The notes below the pieces were generated by a model. It ran no database searches. It saw only the letters and a list, made by a program, of their open reading frames with translations, and was not told the origin of the DNA. A stretch of DNA of 32,000 bases, from assembly GCA_003153315.1 (NCBI GenBank), contig PLYA01000036.1:205858-237857 (forward strand), read 5' to 3'. Source of the DNA: Bacteroidota bacterium. Lineage in GTDB: Bacteria > Bacteroidota > Bacteroidia > B-17B0 > Aurantibacillaceae. Positions 4,527-23,375 of this stretch are shown here, piece by piece (position 1 is the first letter of the stretch; each line of letters opens with the position of its first letter). The translations under genes were made by a program, and so were the position numbers.

Positions 4527-4552
4527 AGTCCCTCTCTTTTAAGAGAAGGACT
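4527..4552 (-). terminator. Rho-independent terminator of orphan gene 4575-5330
   Basis: Imperfect hairpin agtccctctctttt/aagagaaggact. On the minus strand it is followed by TTTTTATTT. It lies 23 nt after the TAA at 4575-4577. Confidence 0.6.
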
Positions 4553-4574
4553 TTTAGTTTATAGTTATAATTTA

Positions 4575-5330
4575 TTAAGAAATAACCACCCTAAACACTT
4601 TGGTGGGAGTACCCATCACGGCTTTTTTGCCTTTGCCTTTTTCTTGCATATAAAACAGGGCTGCCATGCCTTCTTCGGCTTCGGTAAAGTTGGCGGTAAG
4701 GGTGCCGCGTACCAAATCACCCAGGTAGGTATAGCCCGAAGTTTTTACCGCAGGGTCGGGTATGGTGGTTAGGTTGGCGGCCTGTATCAGTATAAATATC
4801 ATGGCTTCTTTTACGCCTTTGCGCTTGGCTTTGCTGGTGGTGCCGGGGTAGTTAATTTCAATTTCTATGCTTAGGTGTATTTGGTGTTTCATGCTAAGGT
4901 ACATGGGCAGCAGCTTGCCGGTTGCCTCGGTGCTTATGGTAGAGGTGGTACGCGTGCCACTTGGCACGGTAATGCGCATAGCTTTTTTTTGCGTAGCCGT
5001 TACCCGTTTATTATTGGCAATATAACTTTTTATAAACATACGGATACTGGTATCGGTACCAATTTTTACATTGCCGCTTTCATAGGCTTGGCGTGCTCCT
5101 TTTAGCTCGGTTTCATTACTGTGTTTAAATTCTTTGCTGCTTACTATTGCCCAAGCGGCTTGCCAACGGGCTTGTTTCACATTTCCGGTGCCTGTAAGGG
5201 TTGCCCAATCAGCAACGGCATCGCTGTTCCAGTTCCAACCGGCTTTAAAAGCGTTTACCTGATTTACAAAGTTAATTTCCCAAGCGGCAAACTCGGCGTT
5301 GGGGGCGGGGATAAAATCATGATCTGGCAT
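4575..5330 (-). CDS. orphan protein (helical N-terminal half, beta-rich C-terminal half); module-1 gene downstream of the 21-bp array
   Basis: 251-aa ORF, visibly more GC-rich than its neighbours, with an ATG start and its own terminator. No family recognised. In-frame TAA stops upstream of the ATG exclude an extension into the repeat array. Confidence 0.75.
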   Translation of the reverse strand: MPDHDFIPAPNAEFAAWEINFVNQVNAFKAGWNWNSDAVADWATLTGTGNVKQARWQAAWAIVSSKEFKHSNETELKGARQAYESGNVKIGTDTSIRMFIKSYIANNKRVTATQKKAMRITVPSGTRTTSTISTEATGKLLPMYLSMKHQIHLSIEIEINYPGTTSKAKRKGVKEAMIFILIQAANLTTIPDPAVKTSGYTYLGDLVRGTLTANFTEAEEGMAALFYMQEKGKGKKAVMGTPTKVFRVVIS

Positions 5331-5368
5331 GGCTATTTGGTTTTAGAGGTTAACGGATTAGTTTTAAG

Positions 5369-5578
5369 GACGTTCCCTGAAACTTTGCAGACACGTCCTG
5401 AAGATAATTGGGCATGTCCTGAAGGTAACTGGACACGTCCTGATAATACGAGGACACGTCCTGATGAAACGAGGGCATGTCCTGATGAAACGAGGGCATG
5501 TCCTGAAGGTAACCGGACACGTCCTGACGATAACTGGACACGCCCTGATGAAACAAGGACATATCCTGAAACTTGTTT
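5369..5578 (-). repeat. array 1: 10 head-to-tail direct repeats, exact 21-bp period
   Basis: Plus-strand units start at 5369, 5390, 5411, 5432, 5453, 5474, 5495, 5516, 5537 and 5558. Examples: gacacgtcctgatgaaacgag and ggcatgtcctgaaggtaactg. Consensus GRCAYGTCCTGA + 9 variable nt. No indels between units. Confidence 0.95.
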
Positions 5579-5807
5579 GCTAACCCCTACTATATAGTTC
5601 GGCAAGCTCACTAACAAGTGTGGGGTTTTAGGCATCTTCTCTATGTATGTGGTTGTTTTCATTTTGTTACAGTAAAATTAACGAAAAATAGTTGAAACTC
5701 TTTCATTAAGTTTTCAACCGTTGGCGGGGGTGCGGTTCGCATCTTTTTCAATGTTTTAGGGGCTTGTATCGGTATAATCTTATTTTATAGGGACGGCGCT
5801 TTTTGAG

Positions 5808-5815
5808 TATATTTG
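5808..5815 (+). promoter_or_regulatory. candidate Bacteroidota -7 promoter box (TAnnTTTG)
   Basis: TATATTTG matches the consensus exactly and ends 7 nt before the ATG at 5823. No convincing -33 TTG was checked. Confidence 0.3.
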
Positions 5816-5822
5816 CTTTGAA

Positions 5823-6455
5823 ATGAAATATTTCTTGCCTCTATTTCTGTTGTTTGTTTTAGCCTCTTGTTCTGTACAAAAAAGATTATACAACAAAGGT
5901 TTTTATGTAAGCAAAAGCCAGCCTACTAATAAGGCTGATATTATAAAAGATACTGCTAAACAAGCTTCTTTATTACACACCATAAAACAAAAGAAAGAAA
6001 CTAATGCTCCCTTGCTTGCTACAGCCGTTAAAGCAATTGCGGTTATTACTAAAAAACAAAATCTCTTACAAGACCCTTGCGATACTATTGTGATGAAAAC
6101 GGGAGAAAAGATTTTAGGTAAAGTAACTAAAGTAAAAGAAGATAAAGTGTTTTTTGAAAATTGTGATGGACAGGGCTATTCAAGCTCTTCTATTCATAAA
6201 GCAGATATTGGTCGTATATCTTATGCTAATGTAAAGCAAAAAACTCAAATTGATAATGGAAAGAAAAGTACTTTTTTCATCGTGAAACTTATTGTATTCC
6301 TTTTATTAATTCTCTGTTTAGTGACAATACTCTTTGTGCGCAATTCTTCATCATCATTTGGACTGGTAGTGTATTTGTTTTTTGCATCAATATTCCTTTT
6401 AATTGCATTAGCTATTATGTTACTTATTACCTTAATTCTGTGGATTACCAATTAA
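5823..6455 (+). CDS. hypothetical lipoprotein with C-terminal transmembrane helices
   Basis: Lipobox-like N-terminus MKYFLPLFLLFVLASCS. Two hydrophobic helices at the C-terminus (FFIVKLIVFLLLILCLVTILF and VVYLFFASIFLLIALAIMLLITLILWI). Confidence 0.7.
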   Translation: MKYFLPLFLLFVLASCSVQKRLYNKGFYVSKSQPTNKADIIKDTAKQASLLHTIKQKKETNAPLLATAVKAIAVITKKQNLLQDPCDTIVMKTGEKILGKVTKVKEDKVFFENCDGQGYSSSSIHKADIGRISYANVKQKTQIDNGKKSTFFIVKLIVFLLLILCLVTILFVRNSSSSFGLVVYLFFASIFLLIALAIMLLITLILWITN

Positions 6456-6506
6456 ATAGTTAAAGGCTGCGTTATGGGATTGCAACGAAAATTCTTTTGC
6501 GGTACA

Positions 6507-6562
6507 ACGTCATGCTGAACTCGTTTCAGCATCTGAGATTCCGAAACAAGTTCGGAATGACG
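6507..6562. repeat. REP-like compound palindromic element (two hairpins enclosed by an outer stem)
   Basis: Outer stem acgtcat (6507-6513) / atgacg (6557-6562). Inner hairpins tgctgaa-ctcgt-ttcagca and attccgaa-acaag-ttcggaat. It translates to the LNSFQHL / KQVRND-type strings typical of Bacteroidota intergenic repeats. Confidence 0.6.
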
Positions 6563-6580
6563 AATGCAAGGGAACGCCCA

Positions 6581-7945
6581 CTACCCGAATAAGTGCGTAA
6601 ACACCTCTTCCATTTTAGAAACGCTGATAAGCTTTATTTTAAATTTATTTAAATCAACCCCCTTGCTGTTGTAGGATGAAATAAACATGCGCTTAAAGCC
6701 CAGTTTTTCGGCTTCGGCAATGCGCTGCTCTATGCGGTTCACGGGGCGTATCTCTCCGGTAAGGCCCACCTCAGCGGCAAAGCAGGTATCCTGCGGTATG
6801 CACAAATCTTCGTTAGAAGAAAGCACAGCACAAACCACCGCCAGGTCTATACCCGGGTCTTCTACCTTAATGCCACCTGCAATGTTTAAGAACACATCTT
6901 TTACGCCCAACCTAAAGCCGCAGCGTTTTTCAAGCACGGCAAGCAACATATTTAAGCGGCGCAAATCAAATCCTGTAGAGGCACGTTGCGGGGTGCCATA
7001 CGCAGCACTGCTTACAAGCGATTGTATTTCTATCAGCATAGGGCGCAAACCCTCCATACTGGCAGCAATGGCAACACCACTGGTGGGCTCGTCTCTATGC
7101 GTAATTAATATTTCTGATGGGTTGCTAACAGCACGTAAACCTGTGCCACGCATTTCATAAATGCCTAATTCGTTGGTGCTTCCAAAACGGTTTTTGGTGG
7201 TGCGCAGTAAACGGTATACATAGTTCCTGTCGCCCTCAAACTGAAGCACGGTATCAACCATGTGCTCCAATACCTTTGGTCCGGCAAGACTACCATCTTT
7301 AGTAATATGTCCTATAATAAAGACAGGCGTACCACTTTCTTTGGCAAAGCGCATCAACTCGGCGGCGCACTCGCGCACCTGACTAACACTGCCCGGACTA
7401 GATTCTATAAAAGCACTGTGCAGTGTTTGGATAGAATCTATAATAACCAGATTGGGTTCGTTCTGTTCTATTTGTTTAAATATATTTTGGGTGTTGGTCT
7501 CTGCCAAGATAAAACAGGTGTCGTTTTGTATACCTACGCGCTCAGCGCGCATGCGTATTTGTTGCTCGCTCTCCTCACCCGACACATATAGTATTTTAAT
7601 TCCTTTTGCCTGAAGGGCTACCTGCAACATCAGGGTAGATTTACCAATGCCGGGCTCTCCGCCAAACAACACTAATGAACCAGGCACAATACCGCCGCCT
7701 AAGATTCTGTCCAGCTCTGCATCATTGGTAGAAAAGCGTTGTTCGTTCTCAACAGTAATTTCATTTATTAATAAGGGCTTGCGCGCCTTACCCAAAGAAG
7801 TAGAACCACTGTTGTTTTTGGTTTCCTTAACGGTAATTTCTTCTATAAAAGAATTCCAGGTATCACAAGAGGGGCATTTACCAAGCCATTTAACCGATTG
7901 GTAACCGCAACTTTGACAAAAAAAGGAAGATTTGGTTTTAGCCAT
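6581..7945 (-). CDS. radA: DNA repair protein RadA/Sms
   Basis: Zn-ribbon CQSCGYQSVKWLGKCPSCDTW, Walker A GGEPGIGKST, RadA signature KNRFG, Lon-like C-terminal domain. The start is set at ATG 7945 (MAKTKSSFFC) rather than the track start at 7978. Confidence 0.93.
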   Translation of the reverse strand: MAKTKSSFFCQSCGYQSVKWLGKCPSCDTWNSFIEEITVKETKNNSGSTSLGKARKPLLINEITVENEQRFSTNDAELDRILGGGIVPGSLVLFGGEPGIGKSTLMLQVALQAKGIKILYVSGEESEQQIRMRAERVGIQNDTCFILAETNTQNIFKQIEQNEPNLVIIDSIQTLHSAFIESSPGSVSQVRECAAELMRFAKESGTPVFIIGHITKDGSLAGPKVLEHMVDTVLQFEGDRNYVYRLLRTTKNRFGSTNELGIYEMRGTGLRAVSNPSEILITHRDEPTSGVAIAASMEGLRPMLIEIQSLVSSAAYGTPQRASTGFDLRRLNMLLAVLEKRCGFRLGVKDVFLNIAGGIKVEDPGIDLAVVCAVLSSNEDLCIPQDTCFAAEVGLTGEIRPVNRIEQRIAEAEKLGFKRMFISSYNSKGVDLNKFKIKLISVSKMEEVFTHLFG

Positions 7946-7986
7946 TAGGGCAGTAAAAGTAACTAAAAGAAACCCCAAATTCTAAT

Positions 7987-7994
7987 TACTTTTG
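7987..7994 (+). promoter_or_regulatory. candidate -7 promoter box (TAnnTTTG) for trmB
   Basis: TACTTTTG matches exactly and ends 8 nt before the ATG at 8003. Confidence 0.35.
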
Positions 7995-8002
7995 TCGCCG
8001 TT

Positions 8003-8671
8003 ATGCCAAATAAGCTTGAAAAATTTGCCGAGTTTGATACCTTCCAAAACTGTAGCTATCTCCCGTTTGAAGAGATAAAGAATGGGCATCCTTTAAAGGG
8101 CAAATGGCACAAAGAGTACTTTGAAAACCAAAACCCCATCATTCTTGAATTAGGCTGTGGCAAAGGAGAGTACACGGTTGGTATGGCACAGAATAACCTC
8201 AAGAAAAACTATATTGGTGTTGATATAAAGGGCAATCGTATTTGGACGGGTGCCAAGTATGCCAGTATGAATAATATGGTAAACGTGGCTTTTGTGCGCA
8301 CCCGGATTGATTTTATAGAATACTGCTTTGCCGAAAACGAAATAGATGAGATATGGATTACTTTTCCTGACCCTCAACTACAAAAAACACGTACGCGTAA
8401 ACGATTAACAAACCCTTTGTTTTTGAACCGATACAAGAAGTTTCTCAAAAAAGATGGACTCATTCATTTAAAAACAGACAGCACTACTTTTTATGAATAT
8501 ACACTGGAAGTGATTGCAGATAATAAGTTGCCCTTGCTATATTCTACGAATGATTTGTATGAAAATAACCCTTCGGGTAAAGAGGAGCTAACCAATATTA
8601 AAACCCATTACGAGCAGCTTTTTTCAGCCAGAGGAGCTAAGATAAAATACTGTTGCTTTAAATTACATTAA
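8003..8671 (+). CDS. trmB: tRNA (guanine46-N7)-methyltransferase
   Basis: LELGCGKGEYTVGMA SAM motif and IWITFPDPQLQK motif characteristic of TrmB. The 222-aa length is typical. Confidence 0.9.
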   Translation: MPNKLEKFAEFDTFQNCSYLPFEEIKNGHPLKGKWHKEYFENQNPIILELGCGKGEYTVGMAQNNLKKNYIGVDIKGNRIWTGAKYASMNNMVNVAFVRTRIDFIEYCFAENEIDEIWITFPDPQLQKTRTRKRLTNPLFLNRYKKFLKKDGLIHLKTDSTTFYEYTLEVIADNKLPLLYSTNDLYENNPSGKEELTNIKTHYEQLFSARGAKIKYCCFKLH

Positions 8672-8680
8672 ATTTACACG

Positions 8681-9556
8681 ATGGAATTACTTAGTCCGGA
8701 AAACTGGAAAGATTACGAATTGTTTGATGTTGGAGATTTTGAAAAGCTGGAACGCTTTGGGCAGTATATTACCATCCGTCCCGAACCACAGGCTGTTTGG
8801 CCCAAAACATGGAGCAACGCCGATTGGGAGAAACAAGCGCACGTTAAATTTATTCCCCGCTCAAGCTCCGCCGGAGATTGGAAGAAATTCAAACAAATGC
8901 CCGACCAGTGGAAGATTGGTTATGAGTTTAAAACCCAAAAGTCTGCCATACAATTTAGGTTAGGCCTAACATCGTTTAAACATGTTGGTGTTTTTCCCGA
9001 ACAAGCTGTTAATTGGGACGCTATTGTTTCCTTTCTAAAAGATATTGAGAAGCCCAAGTTCTTGAATCTCTTTGCTTACACCGGCGGCGCTTCTTTGGCA
9101 GCAAGAGCAGCGGGTGCTGATGTTACCCATGTAGACAGTATAAAACAAGTGGTTACCTGGGCTAATGAAAACATGCAATTATCTAACTTAGATAACATCC
9201 GCTGGATGGTAGATGATGCGATGAAGTTTGTAAAAAAAGAATCGCGTAGAGGGAATTTATATCACGGTATTATTTTAGATCCCCCCGCTTATGGGCATGG
9301 TCCTAATGGCGAGAAATGGAAACTGGAAGACAACATAGCTGAAATGATGGGGGAGGTTCTTAAAGTTTTAAACCCTGAAAAACACTTACTTATATTAAAT
9401 GCATACTCATTAGGCTTTAGCAGTATAATAATTGAGAACTTTTTGCGTTCCTATGCTAAACAACACAAGTCTGCTTTACAAACCGGAGAATTGTTTTTAC
9501 AAGCCAAGAGCGGTGTAAAGCTTCCGTTGGGTGTTTGGGGTCGGCTTACCAAATAA
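8681..9556 (+). CDS. class I SAM-dependent methyltransferase (RlmI/RlmK-like catalytic domain)
   Basis: FAYTGGASLAARAAGA SAM-binding motif and ILDPPAYG catalytic motif. It lies 9 nt after trmB, so it is probably co-transcribed. Confidence 0.82.
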   Translation: MELLSPENWKDYELFDVGDFEKLERFGQYITIRPEPQAVWPKTWSNADWEKQAHVKFIPRSSSAGDWKKFKQMPDQWKIGYEFKTQKSAIQFRLGLTSFKHVGVFPEQAVNWDAIVSFLKDIEKPKFLNLFAYTGGASLAARAAGADVTHVDSIKQVVTWANENMQLSNLDNIRWMVDDAMKFVKKESRRGNLYHGIILDPPAYGHGPNGEKWKLEDNIAEMMGEVLKVLNPEKHLLILNAYSLGFSSIIIENFLRSYAKQHKSALQTGELFLQAKSGVKLPLGVWGRLTK

Positions 9557-9562
9557 CAACAC

Positions 9563-11122
9563 ATGCAGTTAAAAGGTTACCTAACGCATAAAAATGTTTT
9601 TCTTTTTGGCTTAATCCTTATTGCGGTCGGTATGCCGCTATCCCGCTTTTTAGTTAGTGTTTCTTATTTTGTTTTACTTGGCAACTGGGTAATAGAAAGA
9701 AACTTTGTAAGCAAATGGAACGCGATAAAAAAATCTAAAGCTTTTTGGGCTTTTGTTGCCATTTATCTTTTTTATGTAATAGGTTTATTATGGACCAGTG
9801 ATTATGCTTATGGCCTAAAAGATTTGAAAACCAAGCTTCCTATGCTTTGGTTGCCCCTTTTGTTTTTTACCTCTCCTCCCCTCATAAAGAAAGATTATCA
9901 TTTGGTGATGCACTTTTTTGTTTTGGCCTGTATAATAGCTTCGTTTTGTAGCACGGCTGCTTATTTCGGAATTCTGCACAAGAAGGTTCATAACGTAAGG
10001 GATATCTCTCTTTTCGAATCACATATACGGTTCTCATTAATGATAGTCCTTTCCATCGTTTATATGTTTTTCTGTTTCTTAAAGCCTTTATTACTTAAAC
10101 AGAAGCCTATTTATTTAATAGTTATTGGGTGGCTTCTTTTCTTTTTAATATTCCTGCAATCCTTTACAGGGCTTATTATACTAAGCATTTTAGCAATAGT
10201 TGGAATTATTATTTTCCTGTTTTCAAAACAATCCGTCGTTTTTAAAACAATATTCTTGATTTTGGTTGGCGGAGCTTTTCTTTACACCGTTTATTTGATA
10301 AGAGATGAGTATCAAAAGTTATATCTTATAAATGAAATAGATTTTAAAACATTGCCTGATTATACTAAGCAGGGGCACGCATATTATCACGAAAAAAATT
10401 ACAGGCTCACCGAAAATGGCAACTACATCTATATTTTGATGTGTGAAGAAGAATTAAAAAAAGGATGGGTCAAAAGGAGTAATTTAAATTATGATAGTTT
10501 AGATGCAAAAAAAAACCCTCTGCGATATACACTTATGAGATATCTGACTTCAAAAGGTCTTACAAAAGATTCTGCCGGATTTTCAAAATTGACCGATACA
10601 GATATTAGATGTATAGAAAACGGCTATCCTAATTATTTGTATACCAACCCAACCAATATACGTACGCGCATACATGAAATATTATGGGAAATAGATCGCT
10701 ATAGATGTAAACATGAAACAAACGGGCATTCTCTTACCATGCGCCTTGAGTTTTGGAAAACAGCCTATCATATCATAAAGCAAAATCCATGGTTTGGTGT
10801 TGGAACTGGAGATGTTGAAATGGCCTTTAAAGATCAATATAAAAAAGAGAACACCCGTTTACAAAAAGAGTGGCAACTGCGTTCGCATAACCAATACTTA
10901 GCGGTCACAGTCGCTTTAGGCCTTGTTGGTTTGTTGGTTTTTTTAATTCATTTGTTCGCGCCTTTTTTCTCGAAAAAGAAATTATCGGTTTTTTTTATTT
11001 TCTTTTTGTTGATTGAACTGTTGTCATTTATTAATGAAGATACGCTTGAAACACAGGCGGGTTTAACCTTTTGTGTGTTTTTTACTCAGTTACTATTTCA
11101 CAACGACGAGTATAATGTGTAG
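9563..11122 (+). CDS. O-antigen ligase (Wzy_C)-like polytopic membrane protein
   Basis: At least 10 hydrophobic helices. A soluble loop is followed by HNQYLAVTVALGLVGLLVFL, typical of the Wzy_C/O-antigen ligase family. Adjacent to a glycosyltransferase. Confidence 0.78.
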   Translation: MQLKGYLTHKNVFLFGLILIAVGMPLSRFLVSVSYFVLLGNWVIERNFVSKWNAIKKSKAFWAFVAIYLFYVIGLLWTSDYAYGLKDLKTKLPMLWLPLLFFTSPPLIKKDYHLVMHFFVLACIIASFCSTAAYFGILHKKVHNVRDISLFESHIRFSLMIVLSIVYMFFCFLKPLLLKQKPIYLIVIGWLLFFLIFLQSFTGLIILSILAIVGIIIFLFSKQSVVFKTIFLILVGGAFLYTVYLIRDEYQKLYLINEIDFKTLPDYTKQGHAYYHEKNYRLTENGNYIYILMCEEELKKGWVKRSNLNYDSLDAKKNPLRYTLMRYLTSKGLTKDSAGFSKLTDTDIRCIENGYPNYLYTNPTNIRTRIHEILWEIDRYRCKHETNGHSLTMRLEFWKTAYHIIKQNPWFGVGTGDVEMAFKDQYKKENTRLQKEWQLRSHNQYLAVTVALGLVGLLVFLIHLFAPFFSKKKLSVFFIFFLLIELLSFINEDTLETQAGLTFCVFFTQLLFHNDEYNV

Positions 11123-11131
11123 TTTTGTCCC

Positions 11132-12175: not shown

Positions 12176-12321
12176 ACCCTCTTTTCATAAAGGGCATATA
12201 GTGTTTATTAAAACACCGAAACAATCTCTTTCCGTTAATCCTTTTTCATACATAATATAAAAAAACAATACGGTATATTAAAACAAGCTATATATTCGTT
12301 AAAAATTTACAAATACTTAAC

Positions 12322-14337: not shown

Positions 14338-14377
14338 AATTTTGACATTTTTAACCGCGCACAATTCAATAATTAAC

Positions 14378-14385
14378 TACATTTG
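14378..14385 (+). promoter_or_regulatory. candidate -7 promoter box (TAnnTTTG)
   Basis: TACATTTG matches exactly, 26 nt upstream of the ATG at 14412. Confidence 0.3.
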
Positions 14386-14411
14386 TTCTAAATAATTAAA
14401 AAAACAAAACC

Positions 14412-14603: not shown

Positions 14604-14625
14604 TTTTTAGATTTTGTCTTTTAAT

Positions 14626-14660
14626 AAAAACCGCTACGAATTTGGTAGCGGTTTTTTTAT
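14626..14660 (+). terminator. Rho-independent terminator
   Basis: Stem aaaaaccgctac / gtagcggttttt with a trailing T-run, 23 nt after the stop at 14603. Confidence 0.75.
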
Positions 14661-14846
14661 TGTCAATGCCCTCTCCTTAAAAACCCCATAAGATTCTTTT
14701 TAGGAAACAGCAGATTAAAAACAACTTGTAAAAGTTTTAATTTTACTCATCAAGATTAAATGTTAATCCACAAAAAACATATATCTGGCTAATTATTATT
14801 TGTTGATAAAAAAATTTGTGTACTTTAAACCTCTCATTTTTGGTTA

Positions 14847-15926: not shown

Positions 15927-15934
15927 AACTATTT

Positions 15935-16690: not shown

Positions 16691-16691
16691 A

Positions 16692-17525
16692 ATGGAATAT
16701 GTTTGTGTCTCTTTTACCGTAAATCCTCCCGAACCCGGCAGTGAGATTTTAGCCTCTGCTCTATCCGAAGAAAACTTTGAAAGTTTTGTACATAACGATA
16801 CCGGCTTCGAGGCATTCATTCAACAACCTTTGTTTAACGAAACTATTCTGCAAAATCTTTCACAGCAATATCCCCGAATAAAGTTTACCCACAGCGTAAA
16901 AAAAATAAAAAACCAAAACTGGAACGAGGTTTGGGAAAAAAGCTTCTCTCCTGTTATTATAGAAAACTTCTGTACCATACGCGCCCCTTTTCACCCCGCT
17001 CCTACCCCACCTCTTTTAGATATTATTATAGAACCTAAAATGTCCTTTGGCACGGGGCATCACCAAACAACTTGGCTCATGTCAAAAGCTTTGTTTGGTT
17101 TAAACCTGCCCAACAAATCTGTTTTAGATGTGGGTTGCGGCACAGGCATCCTTTCCATCATTGCAAAAAAGTTGGGCGCCCAACACGTAATAGGCATTGA
17201 TATAGACGAGTGGAGCATAGAAAACTCACGCGAAAACCGCAAAGCAAATGGTTACCGCAAAGAGGCTATTGATTTTTACCAAGGCACCATTAATAGTATC
17301 GAGAACGATACTTTTGATGTAATGCTGGCAAACATCAACAAAAACATATTGCTTAAAGAAATAAGTAAATACGCGGCTCACCTAAACCCGGGTGGCATAC
17401 TGCTAATCAGTGGTTTTTTTGATAATGATGGCCCCGAGCTTATTGCCGCAGCAGAAAAAACTGCACTAAAAAACACGGGCAAAGAACTTAAAAACGAGTG
17501 GGCAATGCTCTCCTTCCAAAAATAA
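16692..17525 (+). CDS. prmA: ribosomal protein L11 methyltransferase
   Basis: SFGTGHHQTT, DVGCGTGILSI and FDVMLANI motifs. The start is moved to ATG 16692 (MEYVCVSF), directly after the tpiA stop, instead of the overlapping track start at 16653. Confidence 0.9.
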   Translation: MEYVCVSFTVNPPEPGSEILASALSEENFESFVHNDTGFEAFIQQPLFNETILQNLSQQYPRIKFTHSVKKIKNQNWNEVWEKSFSPVIIENFCTIRAPFHPAPTPPLLDIIIEPKMSFGTGHHQTTWLMSKALFGLNLPNKSVLDVGCGTGILSIIAKKLGAQHVIGIDIDEWSIENSRENRKANGYRKEAIDFYQGTINSIENDTFDVMLANINKNILLKEISKYAAHLNPGGILLISGFFDNDGPELIAAAEKTALKNTGKELKNEWAMLSFQK

Positions 17526-17530
17526 AATAT

Positions 17531-18427
17531 ATGGCGGTCTGCGTTAGGCTAAAGCTTTTATTCCTCCTTTTCATTCCCTTCAGCTTCTCTTTCGCTCAAC
17601 CCTATGTAGATATTATTAATACAAGCGCCCAGTCGGTAAACACAACGTATTATAAAGACACACTTAAAAGTAAAAACCAAACCAACAACTATTACCTAAA
17701 CCTTACCGTTCCTTTAGTAATAGATTCTCAAAACACCATTATTCTTCGCTTCTATGGCGAGCAACTGCAATCAACTATTAAAAACAACTTATACCCCGAA
17801 ACCAACAACCTCTATTCTACCCTTTTATTCTTAGGCTTGCAGCACGAAACAAAAAACAAAAAGTGGAAAACCCTCGGTCTTGTGATGCCCAAACTAAGTT
17901 CAGATTTTAAGAACCCCATCAGCACTTACGATATGCAGCTGGGCGGCTATGGCCTGGTTACTTACGTCCATAACCCCAAACTAAAAATAAAACTCGGGCT
18001 TTATTATAACCGCGATTGTTTTGGCAACTTTTTTGTGCCGCTTGCCGGGGTAGACTGGCGCATAAGCGACAGGTTTCAAATGTATGGGGTGCTGCCCACC
18101 TCCTATCGGTTGGAGTTTGCCCTCATCAAACAAAAACTATACGCGGGTTTTGCCTTCAAATCCTATACCCGCTCTTATAGAATTAGCGATGCCAACCACA
18201 ACTACGTAAAAAATGCCGAACTACAGGCCAAGCTCTTTGTAGATGTGTACATCAAAAAACGCTTTGTGCTTTTTGCCGAATTTGGCAGAACTATTAATTA
18301 CAGTCCGCAGGCTTATGAGTATGGCACCAAAACAGAATTATTAAGTTACCCCATCTACACCAAAATACAGGATGCCTTTTTAGTGCAAGCCGGTTTAGCT
18401 TATAGGATACGGACTGATTTTAAGTAA
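17531..18427 (+). CDS. hypothetical secreted / outer-membrane beta-barrel-like protein
   Basis: ATG 17531 gives signal peptide MAVCVRLKLLFLLFIPFSFSFAQ. The mature protein shows an alternating beta-strand-like pattern. No family recognised. Confidence 0.65.
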   Translation: MAVCVRLKLLFLLFIPFSFSFAQPYVDIINTSAQSVNTTYYKDTLKSKNQTNNYYLNLTVPLVIDSQNTIILRFYGEQLQSTIKNNLYPETNNLYSTLLFLGLQHETKNKKWKTLGLVMPKLSSDFKNPISTYDMQLGGYGLVTYVHNPKLKIKLGLYYNRDCFGNFFVPLAGVDWRISDRFQMYGVLPTSYRLEFALIKQKLYAGFAFKSYTRSYRISDANHNYVKNAELQAKLFVDVYIKKRFVLFAEFGRTINYSPQAYEYGTKTELLSYPIYTKIQDAFLVQAGLAYRIRTDFK

Positions 18428-18522
18428 CCCCACTCCTAACAACCCTCTCTTAATTATATCTAAGTTTAAATTACCTGCCTTTTTATTTATTAATTTGGCT
18501 CATTACTTTGTGCTTATAAATT

Positions 18523-20109
18523 ATGGCATTGAAAAAAAAGATAAAAACTTCTTCTTCTGATTTTAAATCCGAATTAGAATTACATCTAAAAAAATTCTCC
18601 ACTAATCCATACTTATTTATTGGTTCAGGGTTATCGAGAAGGTATTTAAACTTACCGACTTGGCTTACTTTTCTTGAAAGCTTTTACTCTACATTAAACT
18701 TAGATAAGCAGTTTGAATATTATCAATCAAAGTCAAATGGCAGCCTTCCTTTATTAGCATCCATTATTGGAAACGAATTTCATGCAAAATGGTGGGAGCT
18801 TCCTGCTTTTAAGAATAGTAGGGAGTTATATAAAGATTTAGCCAAAGAAAACGAATTATCTCCTTTTAAGATTGAGATCGCAAATAATATAAGAAAGCAT
18901 TCCGTTCCAAATAAAGATTTTGAGGAAGAAATAAATCTATTGAAAAGCTCAGTAATAGATGGGATTATTACAACTAATTGGGATAATTTTTTAAATGAAT
19001 TATTTTCTGACTTCAAGCCTTATATCGGACAACAAGAACTTATGTTTGCTGATTCTTTTTCGGTAGGAGAATTATATAAAATACACGGTTGTTGTTCAAA
19101 GCCAAATAGCATAGTAGTAACAGAGGAGGATTATAAAAATTTCAATTCTAAAAACGCTTATTTAGCCGCAAAATTGCTTACCATTTTTGTGGAACACCCT
19201 ATTATTTTTATTGGCTATTCTATTTCTGATAAAAATATAACGGAATTTTTAAACTCAATTGTTGCGTGTGTAGATACAGAGAGCGTAAAAAAACTTAAAG
19301 ACCGTTTAATATTTGTTGAATGGTCGTCCAAAGCAACTAAAAATAAAATATCAGATAGTAATATTGTTCTTGCAAGCGGATCTGTCTTACCAATCAAGCA
19401 TATTGAAGCGCATAGTTTTAAAGAGTTATTCGAGGTTTTAGCAAGTTTAAAAAAGCGATTACCAGTTAAAATCCTAAGGCAATTAAGGGATGCGGTTTAT
19501 GATTTGGTAAAAACAAATAATTCGAGCAAAACAAAACTTGTTGGAGACTTATTAAATAATGAACATACTGAGGATATAGAATTTGTTATTGGTGTTGGCG
19601 CAACCTCTTTTACGGAACAGGGATATAAAGGAATAACCGCACTTGAAATATTAGAGGACGCAATATTAGAAAACAAGGATTTCGACTGTATAAAGCTGGT
19701 TGAACTTACAATTCCACAAATGATAAAAAGTTCTGTCTACTTACCTGTTTATAAACACTTAAGAAAGGCAAAACTTCTTGACGAAAAAGGAAATATTATT
19801 AAATCATATAACCATTCTGAAAAACTTATTGAGTTTTTAAAAACTAATAAGGTCGAAACCTATTATCCTTCGGATAGCTATGCAAGAAAAAGGTCTGAAA
19901 TTCGAAAAAAATATGGAACCGTTCAAAGCATAACTAGTTCATTCGATAAGGTACATGCATTATATTATATTCCTTTATTAGAAAAGGAAAACATAGATTT
20001 AAAGGATTTAAAGAAATTTTTAAAAGACTGTTTTAATGATGCTACAGTAAAAAAAGATACAACCTTTAAAAAGGTAGTTTGTCTTTATGACTATTTAAAA
20101 TACAATTAA
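18523..20109 (+). CDS. SIR2_2-type sirtuin-like protein with an unassigned C-terminal half (candidate NADase defence effector)
   Basis: Ordered SIR2_2 motifs: FIGSGLSRR (aa 32-40), ITTNWDNFL (Asn152), LYKIHGC (His188), IIFIGYSISD (aa 227-236). Residues from about 290 to 528 have no recognisable domain. The gene is visibly AT-richer than the flanking genes. Confidence 0.8.
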   Translation: MALKKKIKTSSSDFKSELELHLKKFSTNPYLFIGSGLSRRYLNLPTWLTFLESFYSTLNLDKQFEYYQSKSNGSLPLLASIIGNEFHAKWWELPAFKNSRELYKDLAKENELSPFKIEIANNIRKHSVPNKDFEEEINLLKSSVIDGIITTNWDNFLNELFSDFKPYIGQQELMFADSFSVGELYKIHGCCSKPNSIVVTEEDYKNFNSKNAYLAAKLLTIFVEHPIIFIGYSISDKNITEFLNSIVACVDTESVKKLKDRLIFVEWSSKATKNKISDSNIVLASGSVLPIKHIEAHSFKELFEVLASLKKRLPVKILRQLRDAVYDLVKTNNSSKTKLVGDLLNNEHTEDIEFVIGVGATSFTEQGYKGITALEILEDAILENKDFDCIKLVELTIPQMIKSSVYLPVYKHLRKAKLLDEKGNIIKSYNHSEKLIEFLKTNKVETYYPSDSYARKRSEIRKKYGTVQSITSSFDKVHALYYIPLLEKENIDLKDLKKFLKDCFNDATVKKDTTFKKVVCLYDYLKYN

Positions 20110-20110
20110 T

Positions 20111-20176
20111 GGGTTTGCAAACCCGCATACAAGATTACATCGATAATCCGCTTGCGCGGATTTGCAATCCGTGCGC
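20111..20176. repeat. REP-like hairpins centred on TTTGCAA
   Basis: gggTTTGCAAAccc (20111-20124). aatccgc-ttgc-gcggatt (20144-20161) overlaps gcgcggaTTTGCAAtccgtgcgc (20154-20176). Confidence 0.55.
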
Positions 20177-20189
20177 CTAAATAATAAAA

Positions 20190-21044
20190 ATGAAACAACA
20201 AAACGCCATACAACTATTCGAAGACAAAAAGGTAAGAACCCTTTGGGATGCCGAGCAAGAAAAATGGTACATATCCATTATTGATGTTATTGAAATATTA
20301 ACCAATACCGATAGACCCCGAAAATACTGGAGCGATTTAAAAACCAAACTTAAAAACGAAGGAAGCGAGTTGTCCGAAAAAATCGGACAACTGAAAATGC
20401 AATCTGCCGATGGAAAATACTACAAAACAGATGTAGCTGATACAGAGCAGCTTTTCAGGCTTATACAATCTATACCCTCGCCAAAAGCCGAGCCCTTTAA
20501 ACTATGGCTGGCGCAGGTTGCCAACGAGCGGTTAGACGAAATGCAAGACCCCGAACTTGGTATAGACCGCGCGCTGGAACAATACCTACTACTGGGCTAC
20601 TCCGAAAACTGGATAAACCAACGCCTTAAAAGTATTGAAATAAGAAAAGAACTTACCGACGAGTGGAAAAAACGGGGCTTAAAACAAGGGCAACAATTTG
20701 CCACCCTTACTGATATTATTACCAAAGCTTGGGCGGGCAAAACCACCAAAGAGTATAAGGTGTTGAAAGGTTTAAAAAAAGAAAACCTTAGAGATAACAT
20801 GACCAACACCGAACTTATTTTAAACATGCTTGCCGAAGCTTCTGCAAAAGATATTTCTCAAGCTGTAAACCCCAAGGGTTTTTCGGCAAGTAAAAAAGTT
20901 GCCGCACAGGGCGGCAATGTAGCCAAAGTAGCACGCAAAGAACTGGAAGCCAAAACAGGCAAAAAGGTGGTAACAGCCTTAAATGCAAAAGCCGTTTTGC
21001 AACAAAACAAAAGCGCGAAAAACCTGGGCACAAAAAAGAAATAA
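20190..21044 (+). CDS. Bro-N domain / DinD-like (DNA-damage-inducible protein D family) protein
   Basis: N-terminal Bro-N-like VRTLWDAEQEKWYISIIDVIEIL, then the conserved block DVADTEQLFRLIQSIPSPKAEPFKLWLAQVANERLDE. The C-terminal NMTNTELILNMLAEA region parallels E. coli DinD. Confidence 0.8.
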   Translation: MKQQNAIQLFEDKKVRTLWDAEQEKWYISIIDVIEILTNTDRPRKYWSDLKTKLKNEGSELSEKIGQLKMQSADGKYYKTDVADTEQLFRLIQSIPSPKAEPFKLWLAQVANERLDEMQDPELGIDRALEQYLLLGYSENWINQRLKSIEIRKELTDEWKKRGLKQGQQFATLTDIITKAWAGKTTKEYKVLKGLKKENLRDNMTNTELILNMLAEASAKDISQAVNPKGFSASKKVAAQGGNVAKVARKELEAKTGKKVVTALNAKAVLQQNKSAKNLGTKKK

Positions 21045-21048
21045 GTAA

Positions 21049-21098
21049 AACCTTAAACCCTCCTCACATAACTTTCGTTTATCATTCGCTCCACATCC
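21049..21098. repeat. left 50-bp direct repeat; detached copy of the 3' end of the HTH gene (21696-21956)
   Basis: aaccttaaaccctcctcacataactttcgtttatcattcgctccacatcc matches 21692-21741 at 47/50. Its reverse complement reads DVERMINESYVRRV*. Confidence 0.85.
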
Positions 21099-21123
21099 AA
21101 ACAACCAAACACAACTAATTATA

Positions 21124-21180
21124 CCCTTCGACAGGCTCAGGGTACGGAAGCCACTCGGTCGTTGAGCTTGTCGAAACGCC
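21124..21180 (+). repeat. REP-type long hairpin element (copy A)
   Basis: Stem ttcgacaggctca (21127-21139) / tgagcttgtcgaa (21163-21175) with one G-T position. A nearly identical copy lies at 21631-21686. Confidence 0.8.
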
Positions 21181-21218
21181 CGAAGCAAATAATAAAAAAT
21201 ATCCCTACTTTTATAATC

Positions 21219-21518
21219 ATGAAGGGCTATATGTATATATTACAATGCGCCAATGGGTTTTATTATACTGGCAGCACTATAGATTTAGGGCTTCGTATTA
21301 AACAACATCAGAATGGAGAGGGGGCTAATTTTACAAAAAAGCACTTACCCGTTGTTTTAGTTTATTTCGAAGAGTTTCAAAGAATTGATGAAGCATTTAA
21401 TAGAGAGAAACAAGTACAAGGCTGGAGCCGAAAAAAGAAAGAAGCATTAATTAATAGCGAGTACAACAAACTCCCCGAACTGTCTAAGAATTATACACAA
21501 TATAAAGCAGATGATTAA
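21219..21518 (+). CDS. GIY-YIG nuclease family protein (UPF0213/Slx1-like, about 100 aa)
   Basis: MKGYMYILQCANGFYYTGSTIDLGLRIKQHQNG...EAFNREKQVQGWSRKKKEALI contains the GIY..YTG, R, and E..K.W.R motifs. ATG 21219 is chosen because the track start at 21162 is a TTG inside the REP element. Confidence 0.85.
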   Translation: MKGYMYILQCANGFYYTGSTIDLGLRIKQHQNGEGANFTKKHLPVVLVYFEEFQRIDEAFNREKQVQGWSRKKKEALINSEYNKLPELSKNYTQYKADD

Positions 21519-21544
21519 TACTTTTGTCGTTAGTGTTAAGTTTC

Positions 21545-21686
21545 GGACGTTGAGCCCATTCAGTGGTCGTTGAGCTCTCGGTCATTGAGCTTGTCGAAAC
21601 GCCCGCTGTGAAAAACATGTTACAATTGTACCCTTCGACAGGCTCAGGGTACGGTTGCTCTCGGTCGTTGAGCTTGTCGAAACGCC
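21545..21686 (+). repeat. REP cluster: partial tandem copies (gtcgttgagc x3) plus full hairpin copy A' (21631-21686)
   Basis: acgttgagccc, gtcgttgagctc and gtcattgagcttgtcgaaacgcc, then cccttcgacaggctcagggtacggttgctctcggtcgttgagcttgtcgaaacgcc. Confidence 0.8.
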
Positions 21687-21691
21687 GAAAC

Positions 21692-21741
21692 AACCTTAAG
21701 CCCTTCTCACATAACTTTCGTTTATCATTCGTTCCACATCC
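21692..21741. repeat. right 50-bp direct repeat (functional 3' end of the HTH gene)
   Basis: 47/50 identical to 21049-21098. The reverse complement reads DVERMINESYVRRA*. Confidence 0.85.
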
Positions 21742-21956
21742 TCCACCTTATAATACACCTTTTTCCCAATCACAATATAAGCAACCTTCCCAAGCGTTCT
21801 CCAGCGCAATGCCGTTCGTTTAGATATGTTCATCAACATAATAAACTCCTGGTTATCAATAATTCCTTGTGGTCTGTTTTTGTTCACCACCTCCGGGTTC
21901 AAAATCTTTGCACCCCTGTACACTTCCTTTTTTACTAAAATCTGTTCCATCTGCAT
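21696..21956 (-). CDS. helix-turn-helix (HTH_17 / excisionase-MerR-like) DNA-binding protein
   Basis: NISKRTALRWRTLGKVAYIVIGKKVYYKVEDVERMI matches the HTH_17 pattern (TlyrWr..G.l....ig....y...dve) common in Bacteroidota mobile elements. Confidence 0.72.
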   Translation of the reverse strand: MQMEQILVKKEVYRGAKILNPEVVNKNRPQGIIDNQEFIMLMNISKRTALRWRTLGKVAYIVIGKKVYYKVEDVERMINESYVRRA

Positions 21957-22161
21957 TACATATTACAAACCTAAAACTACAAAATAATTAGCAACAAAAA
22001 GCTAAAAATTTTAGCAATTACCATAACCGCCTGATAATAATATTCTTAAAAAACAGGTTCAGCTAAAAGCCATATAGCGCCACATTGGGTCATCTCCCGC
22101 CAAAGGCAGCCGGCATGCGCCATACGCTACCAAGCCCTTGCAAAGCGCCTTGCTCCCACCC

Positions 22162-22169
22162 TACTTTTG
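22162..22169 (+). promoter_or_regulatory. candidate -7 promoter box (TAnnTTTG), with a possible -33 TTG at 22138-22140
   Basis: TACTTTTG matches exactly, with a TTG 21 nt upstream. If used, array 2 would be transcribed as a leader of roughly 0.46 kb for the 22641 gene. Confidence 0.3.
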
Positions 22170-22236
22170 CCAAGGGTTTTGATAATAAAAGCAAAACCGG
22201 AAAAAGAAATCTTACCAAAAAAACTTAAAAGTATGA

Positions 22237-22530
22237 CTGATTTTGCAAAACACCCACATGATTTAGCAAAAAGTGTAACCGGCTTAACAAATTGTACGGA
22301 CGATTTCTCAAAAAGTATGAGCGTGTTTAAAAATCATGTACCCAATTTTAAAAAACATCTGCATGATTTAGTAAAAGGTATAAACGATTTGATAAATCAG
22401 TTGAACGATTCATCAAATCTTCCGCACGACTTTGCAAAAAGCACGCAAGCGTTGCAAAAACATTCAACCGATTTGCGAAATCGTTTGCACGATTTACTAA
22501 AAAGTATGTACGTCTTTGCAAATCGTATAA
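22237..22530 (+). repeat. array 2: 14 head-to-tail direct repeats, exact 21-bp period
   Basis: Units start at 22237 + 21n. Examples: acgactttgcaaaaagcacgc, acgatttactaaaaagtatgt, ccgatttgcgaaatcgtttgc. Consensus aCGATTTgCAAAAAg + about 6 variable nt. No indels. Confidence 0.9.
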
Positions 22531-22640
22531 CAAAAAACATAAGAGCTGTTTTTTACAGGAATAAAAGTCCGCCGCGGCGCAAAAACGTAAACTTCATTTC
22601 TTATAACCTGATAATTATTAACTATAAAAAACCAAAAAAT

Positions 22641-23321
22641 ATGTCCAATCCAAAAGCAGCATTAAACATGCCCAATAAAATAGGCGATAAAATAATACGC
22701 GCCCAATCTATACAAACCAAGCTTACAGGAAACGCCAATTTCCCTGTTGGTAGTTGGCCTGCCAACATAGTAAGTTTAACCCAGTTTGGTACCGATGTTA
22801 CGACGCTAGTAACTACCGAAACGGCGGTTGTAAATAAAACAGGCACGGTGGCAGCACGAAACGCCGCTCTTACCGTAGTACTAACCGACCTGCGCGCATT
22901 AAAAACCATGGTGCAGGTAAAAGCCGATGCCAACCCGGCTAATGCAGCTAATATTATTATAAGCGCAGGGTTTATTGTAGTAACGCGCAGCAATCATAGT
23001 AAAAGGCAAAACCAGGCCTTAAACACCGAGGTACTTGGCACCGTATTGCTTACTGCCGATAAAGGAGGGCACCACGAGTGGCAAATGAGCAAAGATGGCG
23101 GAACCACCATTGTTAATCTGCCCGCTACCACTACCAGCATTACAAAAGTAACAGGCCTAAACCCGGGCGATGTATGGTATTTTAGGAACCGTAAAGTGAA
23201 CACTAAAAAAACCACTTATAACTGGAGTACCTGGCTTAAGTTAATTATAGGTCCGGGTGGAAAAACCACAGGAGGTGGAAACCAATCGGGTGTGGCTGGT
23301 AGTTTACCAAATACTTTATAA
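22641..23321 (+). CDS. orphan protein with helical N-terminal half and Fn3-like C-terminal beta-sandwich; module-2 gene
   Basis: ATG 22641 (MSNPKAALNMPNK). The C-terminal HEWQMSKDGGTTIVNLPATTTSITKVTGLNPGDVWYFRNRK...YNWSTW resembles an Fn3 signature. More GC-rich than the surroundings and has its own terminator. The track ORF extends upstream to 22167 through the repeat array (alternative ATG at 22233). Confidence 0.72.
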   Translation: MSNPKAALNMPNKIGDKIIRAQSIQTKLTGNANFPVGSWPANIVSLTQFGTDVTTLVTTETAVVNKTGTVAARNAALTVVLTDLRALKTMVQVKADANPANAANIIISAGFIVVTRSNHSKRQNQALNTEVLGTVLLTADKGGHHEWQMSKDGGTTIVNLPATTTSITKVTGLNPGDVWYFRNRKVNTKKTTYNWSTWLKLIIGPGGKTTGGGNQSGVAGSLPNTL

Positions 23322-23341
23322 ATACTATTTTGATATGTACT

Positions 23342-23375
23342 AAAAGCCCTGCAGTTCTTGCAGGGTTTTTATTTT
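23342..23375 (+). terminator. Rho-independent terminator
   Basis: Stem ccctgca (23347-23353) / tgcaggg (23359-23365), followed by TTTTTATTTT. Confidence 0.8.

Follow-up and report, generated by a model that had tools for sequence, protein, structure and literature searches.

The 32,000-nucleotide (nt) stretch of the Bacteroidota contig PLYA01000036.1 analysed here (the window) carries two copies of a genetic module that is recurrent among related bacteria. Each copy pairs a tandem array of 21-nt units with a single gene for a small orphan protein, for which a helical N-terminal domain and a C-terminal beta-sandwich of the fibronectin type III (FN3) kind are predicted. Module 1 lies on the minus strand and encodes a protein of the family fam1; module 2 lies on the plus strand and encodes a protein of the family fam2. 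A preliminary description, made from the letters of the window, had proposed that the two modules are of one kind. This is borne out by the common architecture of the two proteins and by the association of period-21 arrays with genes of these families across other loci, and their co-occurrence in the window is not due to chance.

The association was assessed in the window and 51 related loci (L numbers), together 309,511 bases. The loci were picked via the protein, and about 250 kb of flanking sequence served as background. Fifty array regions with a period of 21, 42 or 63 nt were detected, 48 of which lie within 600 nt of a family gene, i.e. in 18% of the sequence (binomial P 3e-33). Conversely, 48 of the 53 family genes have an array at most 600 nt away. 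Control lags from 17 to 36, taken singly, returned 0–1 arrays each, against 37 for lag 21 alone, and the remaining ~250 kb contain essentially no period-21 arrays. Some loci duplicate one another; the association holds without them. The pairing extends to distant members of the superfamily (proteins P0212, P0181, P0341, P0249 and P0255) that are 15–40% identical to the window protein (alignment A4). The protein family is the sole constant partner of the arrays: flanking genes vary by locus, no third gene is consistently linked across loci, and fam1 loci are surrounded by unrelated housekeeping genes and genes for cargo of the type IX secretion system (T9SS). All data are sequences of metagenome-assembled genomes (MAGs) and metagenomes. 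Assembly tends to collapse tandem arrays, and many of the contigs break off at the array. Short-read assemblies evidently fail there, so that arrays may be longer than they look in MAGs.

The arrays comprise 8–20 units of 21 nt that abut without spacers, and higher-order periods of 42 and 63 nt are common. Most units contain a dyad-symmetric core, a palindrome of 6–14 bp that is different at each locus. It reads GGACRTGYCC in window module 1, GCGGCTATAGCCGC in L022, GGAGTACTCC in L029, CAGGGAnnTCCCTG in L027, AAGACGTCTT in L025 and L026, ACGGTAACCGT in L030 and L031, TTGCAAGCTTGCAA in L011, CAGTAACG-CGATC-CGTTACTG in L042, GCGCAGAA-n4-TTCTGCGC in L048 and GGGAAACTTTCCC in L044. Within one array the cores are conserved and the sequence between them varies. 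At the best dyad axis, Watson-Crick pairs account for 42–79% of the symmetric positions, and for most arrays folding gives z-scores of −3 to −9 on both strands. A family-wide array motif (GG-N6-CC, TnGCAA or phase-locked 4-mers) was sought and none proved general.

Comparison of closely related loci shows how the arrays evolve. Between module 2 and its ortholog in L001, identity amounts to 90% in the leader, 91% in the trailer and 89% in the gene (95/97/75% by codon position), and to 66% in the array. The array thus diverges near the synonymous rate (66% against 75% at codon position 3). The two arrays differ in length by one whole-unit indel. L042 and L043 encode an identical protein, and the length of their arrays differs by a single super-unit of 63 nt. 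The only group in which small indels were seen comprises the related arrays of L008, L005 and L021 (lag 62 in L008). Since the phase is kept, divergence is near synonymous and the length changes between these compared loci involve whole units or super-units only, spacing is constrained and sequence is not. The arrays behave like satellites that amplify, decay and get replaced under a strict constraint on unit length.

The preliminary description had further suggested co-variation of each protein with the array beside it, after the manner of Rep/iteron, ParR/parC or omega systems. This suggestion is not supported, because units are unrelated even where proteins and leaders are nearly the same. 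The fam1 proteins of window module 1 and L022 are 91% identical and their leaders of ~185 nt are ~90% identical up to the array boundary, whereas the arrays have 2% of 9-mers in common (GGACRTGYCC versus GCGGCTATAGCCGC). No 9-mers at all are common to the arrays of L026 and L027 (proteins 85% identical), L024 and L028 (83%) or L006 and L005 (79%). Homology between arrays can be recognised only where two loci are closest or otherwise related, as in L008/L005, L010/L014 and L030/L031. Between proteins that are alike but have unrelated arrays, the residue differences are scattered and conservative. Ortholog and paralog comparisons alike ruled out co-variation, and no hypervariable protein segment tracks the array.

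The arrays are non-coding rather than conserved coding sequence. In at least 13 arrays each of the six frames is interrupted by stops, and the array upstream of a third module 2 ortholog (L050, 80% amino acid (aa) identity) has stops in every sense frame. By codon position, array 2 and the L001 array are 74/67/71% identical, i.e. without periodicity, and unit-to-unit variability in fam1 arrays is 0.83/0.77/0.79 bits, i.e. without third-position bias. Some arrays are nevertheless traversed by an open reading frame (ORF). In all 12 fam1-type loci tested (the close clade and L038), an ORF beginning at an ATG in the leader crosses the array and stops 2–44 nt before the main ATG, against a baseline openness of ~25% for other frames. 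Frame openness tracks GC content, which is 0.41–0.61 in fam1 arrays and 0.26–0.42 in fam2 arrays. Translation through the array may matter in the close fam1 clade, with the peptide itself not conserved. Public gene callers annotate arrays as protein, either as a 362-aa fusion (window 22233–23321) or as separate 'genes' of 89–136 aa (L034 7720–7989, L038 5556–5966 and L048 3664–3948), which are probably annotation artefacts.

Neither window protein has a significant match in Pfam, NCBIfam, PADLOC or PDB sequences, and PHROGs returned a single insignificant match for the two (E 0.019). As the preliminary description had expected, no signature of a Rep, ParB/ParR or ribbon-helix-helix (RHH) protein was found. 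The helical N-terminal half and beta-rich C-terminal half that it had read from the sequences are also predicted by AlphaFold2 for both proteins, with a mean predicted local distance difference test score of 83 for fam2 and 66 for fam1, the fam1 model being of moderate confidence only. In Foldseek searches both C-terminal domains match generic FN3 domains and nothing more specific. Judged from these models, fam1 and fam2 share one architecture. BLASTP and narrow profile comparison detect no similarity between the families. A broad fam1 profile aligned to fam2 by hhalign is marginal (E 0.017) but covers the whole FN3 domain in register, and for this reason the two families may be distant homologs. 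fam1 is modular, its conserved FN3 domain being joined to either of two alternative N-terminal domains. The FN3 domain carries a basic motif, SKAKxKGVK, which can also be read as SRxKPxGVK (alignment consensus SxAKPxGV); the window protein has SKAKRKGVK. The corresponding family form in fam2 is FRNxKVNTKK, represented in the window by FRNRKVNTKK. We found 48 relatives of fam1, none of them named, and an exhaustive search extended the fam1 superfamily to at least 180 clusters (50% identity). For fam2, 145 relatives can be detected. The sources of all these relatives are uncultured MAGs of the Bacteroidia type and metagenomes of peat, bog, palsa, groundwater and soil, with up to 11 fam2 copies per MAG. 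IMG/VR viral contigs contain no relatives of the families, which ruled out a phage origin.

In the window itself (Table 1), stacking the sequence in rows of 21 nt resolved array 1 into 10 units running from 5577 down to 5368 (core TCAGGACRTGYCC) and array 2 into 14 units at 22234–22527 (core GATTTnGCAAAA). Neither contains an internal indel, in agreement with the preliminary description. Unit identity in array 2 has decayed to 55–60%. Tandem Repeats Finder reports a period of 21 with 8.6 copies for array 1 and misses the more diverged array 2; a lag-autocorrelation scan detects both, and the whole window yields only lags 21, 42 and 63. Other details of that description stand in part. The fam1 gene indeed encodes 251 aa, but the fam2 protein has 226 aa instead of 227. 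The GC excess of the genes over their surroundings is clear at module 1 (0.45–0.46 over 4501–5500 versus 0.32–0.36 in the flanks) and only slight at module 2 (0.41–0.44). Each module is monocistronic in having a single family gene, but in the close fam1 clade a leader-started ORF spans the array. What had been missed is that both arrays are situated inside open frames (5333–5662 minus and 22233–23321 plus). The frame at 5333–5662 is kept open and its peptide is not conserved. The 362-aa fusion is not conserved either: fam2 relatives begin near 22641, at the short ORF. The hairpin and T-run terminators proved real, with folding energies of −19.9 kcal/mol (z −6.1) at module 1 (4518–4578 minus) and −19.4 kcal/mol (z −4.0) at module 2 (23322–23385 plus), the latter looking bidirectional.

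Table 1. Coordinates of the two modules and of an adjacent gene in the window
Feature	Position	Strand	Description
Array 1	5368..5577	minus	10 units of exactly 21 nt; dyad core GGACRTGYCC; two spacer types alternating
fam1 gene	4575..5330	minus	251 aa; predicted type A helical N-domain and FN3-like C-domain
Module 1 intrinsic terminator	4519..4556	minus	14-bp hairpin, then T-run
Module 1 trailer	5331..5367	minus	A-rich, 37 nt, from array 1 to ATG
Module 1 leader	5578..5760	minus	alignment A3
Leader-initiated ORF	5333..5662	minus	109 codons across array 1; stop 2 nt 5′ of the ATG of the gene
Array 2	22234..22527	plus	14 diverged units of exactly 21 nt; core GATTTnGCAAAA
fam2 gene	22641..23321	plus	226 aa; predicted four-helix N-domain, FN3 C-domain and disordered Gly-rich tail
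Long in-frame ORF	22233..23321	plus	fuses array 2 to the gene; public 362-aa call P0049
Module 2 leader	22100..22233	plus	90% identical to leader of ortholog L001
Module 2 trailer	22528..22640	plus	91% identical to trailer of L001
Module 2 intrinsic terminator	23341..23381	plus	hairpin, then T-run; minus strand scores too
HTH_17 (excisionase-like) gene	21696..21956	minus	divergent from module 2; kept in L001; context only, module membership not implied

The module 1 leader is ~90% identical to the leaders of L022, L029 and L033 (alignment A3), and the similarity ends at ...TATATAGTAGGGGTTAGCAAACAAGTTTC. No hairpin plus T-run was found in the module 1 trailer (5331–5367) by a terminator scan or by reading the sequence, and because it has only 37 nt, no promoter plus 5′ untranslated region fits into it. 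The stretch from array 2 to the ATG contains neither a terminator-like site nor a match to a Bacteroidetes-type promoter. The module 2 leader contains a C-rich tract, CCCACCC, and at 22162–22169 a Bacteroidetes-type −7 box, TACTTTTG, 21 nt after CTTG. This box is promoter-like only, as such boxes are overall not above background.

Module layout differs between the families. Every fam1-superfamily locus with an array has the order leader, array, A-rich trailer of 37–90 nt, gene and terminator, except that in L044 the gap between array and gene is ~280 nt. As the trailer mostly has neither the room for a promoter nor a promoter box, we infer a fam1 promoter within the conserved leader and, with it, transcription of the array. 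Three layouts occur in fam2. The head-to-tail order of fam1 is found in the window, L001 and L050. In L010, L012 and L014 the array is followed directly by a sigma-54-like box (TGGCAC-N5-TTGT) and then by a conserved ORF-less stretch of ~260 nt reaching to the fam2 ATG (L010 2712–2971, L012 1145–1409, L014 2711–2974). In the third and commonest layout, the gene is followed by a bidirectional terminator and by an array on the opposite strand that runs from a C-rich leader; a helix-turn-helix (HTH) gene of the XRE type sometimes precedes fam2. The array of this tail-to-tail layout reaches to 10–30 nt of the terminator in most loci and to 60–110 nt in L003 and L002. The orientation of such stand-alone arrays is assigned by leader similarity. 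An invertible gene cassette as the source of the two fam2 orientations was ruled out, as there are no flanking inverted repeats. Bacteroidetes sigma-A boxes (TTTG-N19-21-TAnnTTTG) point into the array in the window (22162–22169), L001, L002, L006, L013 and L021, and sigma-54 boxes were seen only at L010, L012, L014 and L030 and, weaker, at L019.

How can some fifty arrays with unrelated units agree in their period? One common ruler is called for because all of them, those of distant family members included, have a period of 21 (42/63) nt while the control lags are empty. Two rulers are available, two turns of B-DNA and a protein, and the protein was chosen because it is the only constant partner. 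We therefore tentatively favour a reading, to which we would give well below an even chance, that the adjacent protein sets the 21-nt ruler and binds its own array once per unit by spacing and shape, not by sequence. The module is a self-contained pair in which 21-nt units form a non-coding array next to the gene of a small protein of helical and FN3 architecture. In fam1, the array would be transcribed from the leader promoter as the 5′ part of the mRNA; at many fam2 loci, it is a separate unit, tail-to-tail with the gene behind a common terminator. One protein unit would occupy each repeat, probably as a dimer on each dyad core, and would polymerise along the array. Recognition would proceed via shape, symmetry and spacing, with contact made by the conserved basic loops of the FN3 domain. 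The outcome of binding would be either feedback on expression of the module itself or sequestration of the protein. Array transcription, protein binding and feedback are all steps that we infer from the sequences, and we lean slightly towards double-stranded DNA rather than RNA as the bound form. The conserved basic motifs in the FN3 domains of both families speak for this reading, as do the dyad pairing and the folding on both strands. That the helical and FN3 protein polymerises on its locus-unique array, forming an undescribed protein-nucleic acid module so far seen in uncultured Bacteroidota only, is a more doubtful extension.

Several observations weigh against a protein-set ruler. No recognisable nucleic-acid-binding domain turned up in either protein. 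A protein that reads shape leaves the conservation of cores within an array unexplained, and a sequence-blind protein has no obvious means of sensing a palindrome on duplex DNA. Arrays of one family have no k-mer or spaced motif in common. Five fam2 arrays (L002, L003, L010, L012 and L019) are without self-complementarity, and diverged units lose the dyad without compensating changes (L048). Dyad mismatches on the sense strand are of the G-U type in 106 cases and of the A-C type in 132, i.e. without wobble bias, and sense and antisense strands show no asymmetry in folding energy and no base skew. Selection for RNA hairpins is not supported, because there is neither a strand bias in folding nor an excess of G-U pairs. 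Finally, promoter-like boxes pointing into arrays are, over all loci, not enriched above background.

The same features can be viewed from the DNA side. The arrays might be phased operator clusters for sequence-specific regulators encoded elsewhere, such as HTH dimers or LytTR-type proteins. One site per two helical turns would allow cooperative binding on one face, and the cluster would act as roadblock, silencer, enhancer or decoy. We consider this unlikely, although the cores are palindromes of 6–14 bp at a spacing of exactly 21 bp and are conserved next to variable spacers, the mismatches lack wobble bias as those of a duplex-DNA feature would, and documented LytTR sites have a 21-bp period (PMC2766830). 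Candidate regulators can be named at some loci: LytTR genes at window 26445–27200 and directly upstream of the L048 array, and small HTH genes that abut modules (XRE in L004, L006 and L008, HTH_17 in the window and L001, GerE in L039). In L010, L012 and L014, the array just upstream of TGGCAC-N5-TTGT occupies an enhancer position, and the variable orientation of arrays relative to fam2 is enhancer-like. However, each unrelated array would need a dedicated regulator, in one MAG for 11 fam2 copies, and a regulator swap would be required whenever arrays are replaced between near-identical loci. No regulator gene is consistently linked, flanking genes are diverse, and GADRQYVW is common to the XRE proteins encoded in L006 and L008 in spite of different arrays. 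Moreover, a period of 21 bp would not be expected of every one of several different regulator families, the number of sites is two in known LytTR operators instead of 8–20, and the fam1 array lies downstream of the inferred promoter. A further option is that the array is a cis-acting leader, long, repetitive and either translated or structured, that works independently of the protein, tunes transcription, translation or mRNA stability, and is linked to the family because duplicated genes carry their leader along. Translation of the leader ORF might prevent polarity and couple to the main ATG, or length variation might be an expression knob. The ORF that spans the array in 12 of 12 fam1-type loci (baseline ~0.25), the in-frame fusion in module 2 and L001, the strongly conserved leaders and the different copy numbers in samples with identical protein (L042 versus L043) all agree with this, and the lack of codon-position conservation would mean that translation may matter while its product does not. 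We nevertheless find it distinctly unlikely: stops occur in every sense frame upstream of the genes in L042/L043, L044, L046/L047 and L050, and openness tracks GC content. Left unexplained are the separate tail-to-tail arrays of fam2, the dyad symmetry, and why the unit is always 21 nt and not any multiple of 3.

Arrays without any function, i.e. satellite-like by-products of a palindromic 21-mer that, at a permissive spot, is amplified by slippage or unequal recombination, decays and is replaced, would account for the 42- and 63-nt higher-order repeats, uncompensated unit decay, wholesale replacement between close relatives and near-neutral divergence. But neutral decay to 55–60% unit identity predicts many small indels and array 2 has none, unit length is equal in ~50 independent arrays, and in spite of very deep divergence an array has been retained at 48 of 53 family genes, with ~250 kb around them essentially array-free, which makes this reading improbable. 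A new family of type III toxin-antitoxin (TA) or abortive-infection systems, in which the repeat RNA is cut into units that neutralise the adjacent protein, would match the self-contained two-part module of promoter-like leader, tandem direct repeats and small protein gene, and the defence-type surroundings of several fam2 loci (SIR2_2 in the window, ThsB_TIR in L005, OLD-like in L010, DUF6932/HTH in L008). A reversed toxI/toxN arrangement is on record, and undiscovered families are expected (PMC3401426). Known families, however, have 1.9–5.6 copies of a 31–62-nt unit (PMC3401426), not 8–20 copies of 21 nt, and in the modules described here a terminator between array and gene, a ToxN/AbiQ-like protein or PADLOC match, array/protein co-variation and a strand-specific RNA signature are all missing; nor was the family found in viral contigs. 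We regard such a system as very improbable. Least credible of all is that the arrays are coding and specify hypervariable peptides of heptad repeats, which would form a small protein of their own upstream of the gene or a coiled coil extending the N-terminus of the FN3 protein. True, a unit of 21 nt corresponds to 7 codons, both window modules and the close fam1 clade have open frames, a few of the translated peptides look like a/d heptads (LAAVNLQ LATVSSQ in L014, HDLLKSM in array 2), and public callers annotate arrays as genes (P0049; L034 7720–7989). Coding heptad repeats were rejected on account of six-frame stops in many arrays and of the lack of codon periodicity, whether between orthologs or between units; fam2 relatives start at the short ORF, the peptides have no property common across loci, and dyad-symmetric cores are not expected of coding sequence.

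Among described systems, type III TA modules (ToxIN, CptIN, TenpIN) are nearest in layout. They are two-part modules with tandem direct repeats, usually upstream on the same strand, their arrays differ by locus, and they are chromosomal and sometimes located in defence islands. The upstream array fits both window modules and every array-bearing locus of the fam1 superfamily, whereas most fam2 loci are tail-to-tail. Neither window module has the terminator-like site between array and ATG, and the predicted helical and FN3 fold is not that of a ToxN/AbiQ/CptN-type endoribonuclease. Iterons, with ~17–22 bp at about two helical turns next to a gene, resemble the units described here, whose period is exactly 21 bp. 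In contrast to iteron/Rep systems, no winged-helix Rep family or fold and no origin features were found, and specificity of the Rep-iteron type is lacking, as arrays are unrelated where proteins are 79–91% identical. The flanks consist of housekeeping genes, for RadA, MnmG, TIM, PrmA and similar proteins, and the family is absent from viral contigs (a plasmid collection was not searched). The operators of LytTR regulators (AgrA, ComE, PlnC and SilA type) consist of 9–10-bp direct repeats with 11–12-bp spacers, which add up to a period of exactly 21 bp (PMC2766830). These known operators comprise two repeats just upstream of a promoter, as opposed to 8–20 mostly palindromic units here, which for the most part follow the inferred promoter, and there is no consistent linkage to LytTR genes. 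Repetitive extragenic palindromic (REP) elements, bacterial interspersed mosaic elements and clustered regularly interspaced short palindromic repeats (CRISPR) also form intergenic arrays of short palindromic repeats. REP units, however, are the same genome-wide and spread by REP-associated tyrosine transposases, while the present units are locus-unique; CRISPR arrays have unique spacers, while the present units abut and the window contains no cas genes.

In the ParR/parC systems of R1 and pSK41 and in the omega heptads, around ten phased direct repeats upstream of the gene are bound cooperatively along one helix face, giving rise to a nucleoprotein filament. The modules described here resemble them in array layout only, and binding would follow by analogy. 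No RHH adaptor was found, a partner NTPase occurs only at L003 (ParA-like, 4359–5174), and the loci are chromosomal, present in many copies and have arrays not matched to the adjacent protein. Literature on 21-bp or 21-nt repeat arrays in bacteria or Bacteroidetes yielded nothing that resembles the module. Rfam 15 at its gathering threshold gave no match in the window and, in nine loci tested, a single unrelated Flavo-1 RNA. The view of the preliminary description that no described system has such a layout was upheld by these library and literature searches, and we rate the pair of array and helical/FN3 protein, which matches no described system, as a novel type of module.

Provided that the pairing is functional, it would constitute a new class of genetic module whose unit length is fixed over ~50 loci and whose sequence is free, tied to an uncharacterised superfamily of at least 180 clusters at 50% identity and to 145 fam2 proteins. 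It would further offer a testable case of shape- or phase-based nucleic acid recognition by a bacterial FN3-type fold and could add a regulatory or defence principle specific to Bacteroidota. On the reading that the protein polymerises on its array, a cell with at least 10 modules would hold at least 10 mutually distinct scaffolds that turn over like neutral DNA. Of practical relevance already is that the arrays break short-read assemblies and cause mis-annotated genes, such as the 362-aa fusion P0049 and the 'genes' of 89–136 aa. Because several fam2 modules adjoin genes of the SIR2, TIR and OLD type, a role in phage sensing or defence is conceivable, in which the array might for instance be a bait or decoy for incoming DNA-binding proteins.

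The neighbourhoods of fam2 modules are of interest in their own right. A ParA-like ATPase gene starts ~200 nt after the array in L003 (4359–5174), and a ThsB-type TIR protein (L005 1295–1879), an OLD-like TOPRIM/AAA protein (L010 427–2304 minus) and a pair of DUF6932 and HTH_3 (L008 4156–5177) adjoin other fam2 modules. By gene content, these four are defence or mobile-element neighbourhoods. Small XRE HTH genes are located directly upstream of fam2 in L006 (2693–2959) and L008 (2721–2957) and directly upstream of a reverse-oriented array in L004 (3522–3746 minus); the XRE proteins in L006 and L008 have GADRQYVW as their recognition-helix segment. In L048, a gene for a LytTR-only protein of 143 aa (3056–3487) precedes the array by ~160 nt, which is a lead in view of the 21-bp period of the direct repeats that LytTR domains bind. 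Linkage to LytTR or HTH regulator genes had been considered and is sporadic only, with just 3 LytTR genes in 303 kb of loci. The window itself is an unremarkable piece of chromosome and encodes OmpA/TPR proteins, RadA, methyltransferases, Wzy, a glycosyltransferase, an M13 peptidase, TIM, PrmA and MnmG. It also encodes a PAS kinase with a LytTR regulator: the LytTR response regulator (26445–27200) and a PAS/HisKA_2 kinase occupy 26445–29801 on the minus strand, 3 kb from module 2. A small island of low GC content (0.29–0.35; 18523–21956) immediately precedes module 2, next to mnmG, and contains genes for a SIR2_2-domain protein (18523–20109), Bro-N (20190–21044), GIY-YIG (21162–21518) and HTH_17 (21696–21956 minus). 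It looks like the remnant of a mobile or defence element. The ortholog L001 keeps the HTH_17 gene, the downstream methyltransferase gene and mnmG.

Two fam2 copies depart from their relatives. The C-terminus of the L008 protein (P0090; 3540–3687) is out of frame relative to all relatives, and the L019 copy (2959–3697) is split into two ORFs; as judged from their reading frames, these are frameshifted pseudogenes or assembly errors. Two MAGs in the dataset are titled 'Candidatus Saccharibacteria', CAJCJB01 (L002, L005, L010–L016 and L021) and CAVXOV01 (L001, L006, L008 and L019). This label looks wrong because genes for T9SS-type cargo (Por_Secre_tail, SprB, CHU_C) are present on their contigs and the encoded proteins group with those of Bacteroidia MAGs.

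The ~260-nt ORF-less stretch of L010, L012 and L014 has no match in Rfam and may be a structured leader RNA. The Flavo-1 RNA (RF01705, 53 bits) lies at L014 394–472 on the minus strand, ~2 kb from the array, and is probably unrelated to it. Short metagenome scaffolds, many of 1–1.6 kb, on which many family members are located, end inside or beside an array (e.g. L050 1–330 and L051 1–90); they had been suspected to be contigs of transcript length and are really metagenome scaffolds broken at the array. The distant family member P0219 (L039 5319–5560, same in L040 and L041) has no clear array directly upstream, and its loci show only a weak stretch of 63-nt period beyond a divergent HTH gene of the GerE/LuxR type; few other family genes lack a convincing array. 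In L042, and also in L043, intergenic tracts near a distant family member (4720–4894, 5237–5391 and 6721–6866) have a period of 7 nt (also 14 and 21 nt) and are unlike the 21-nt arrays.

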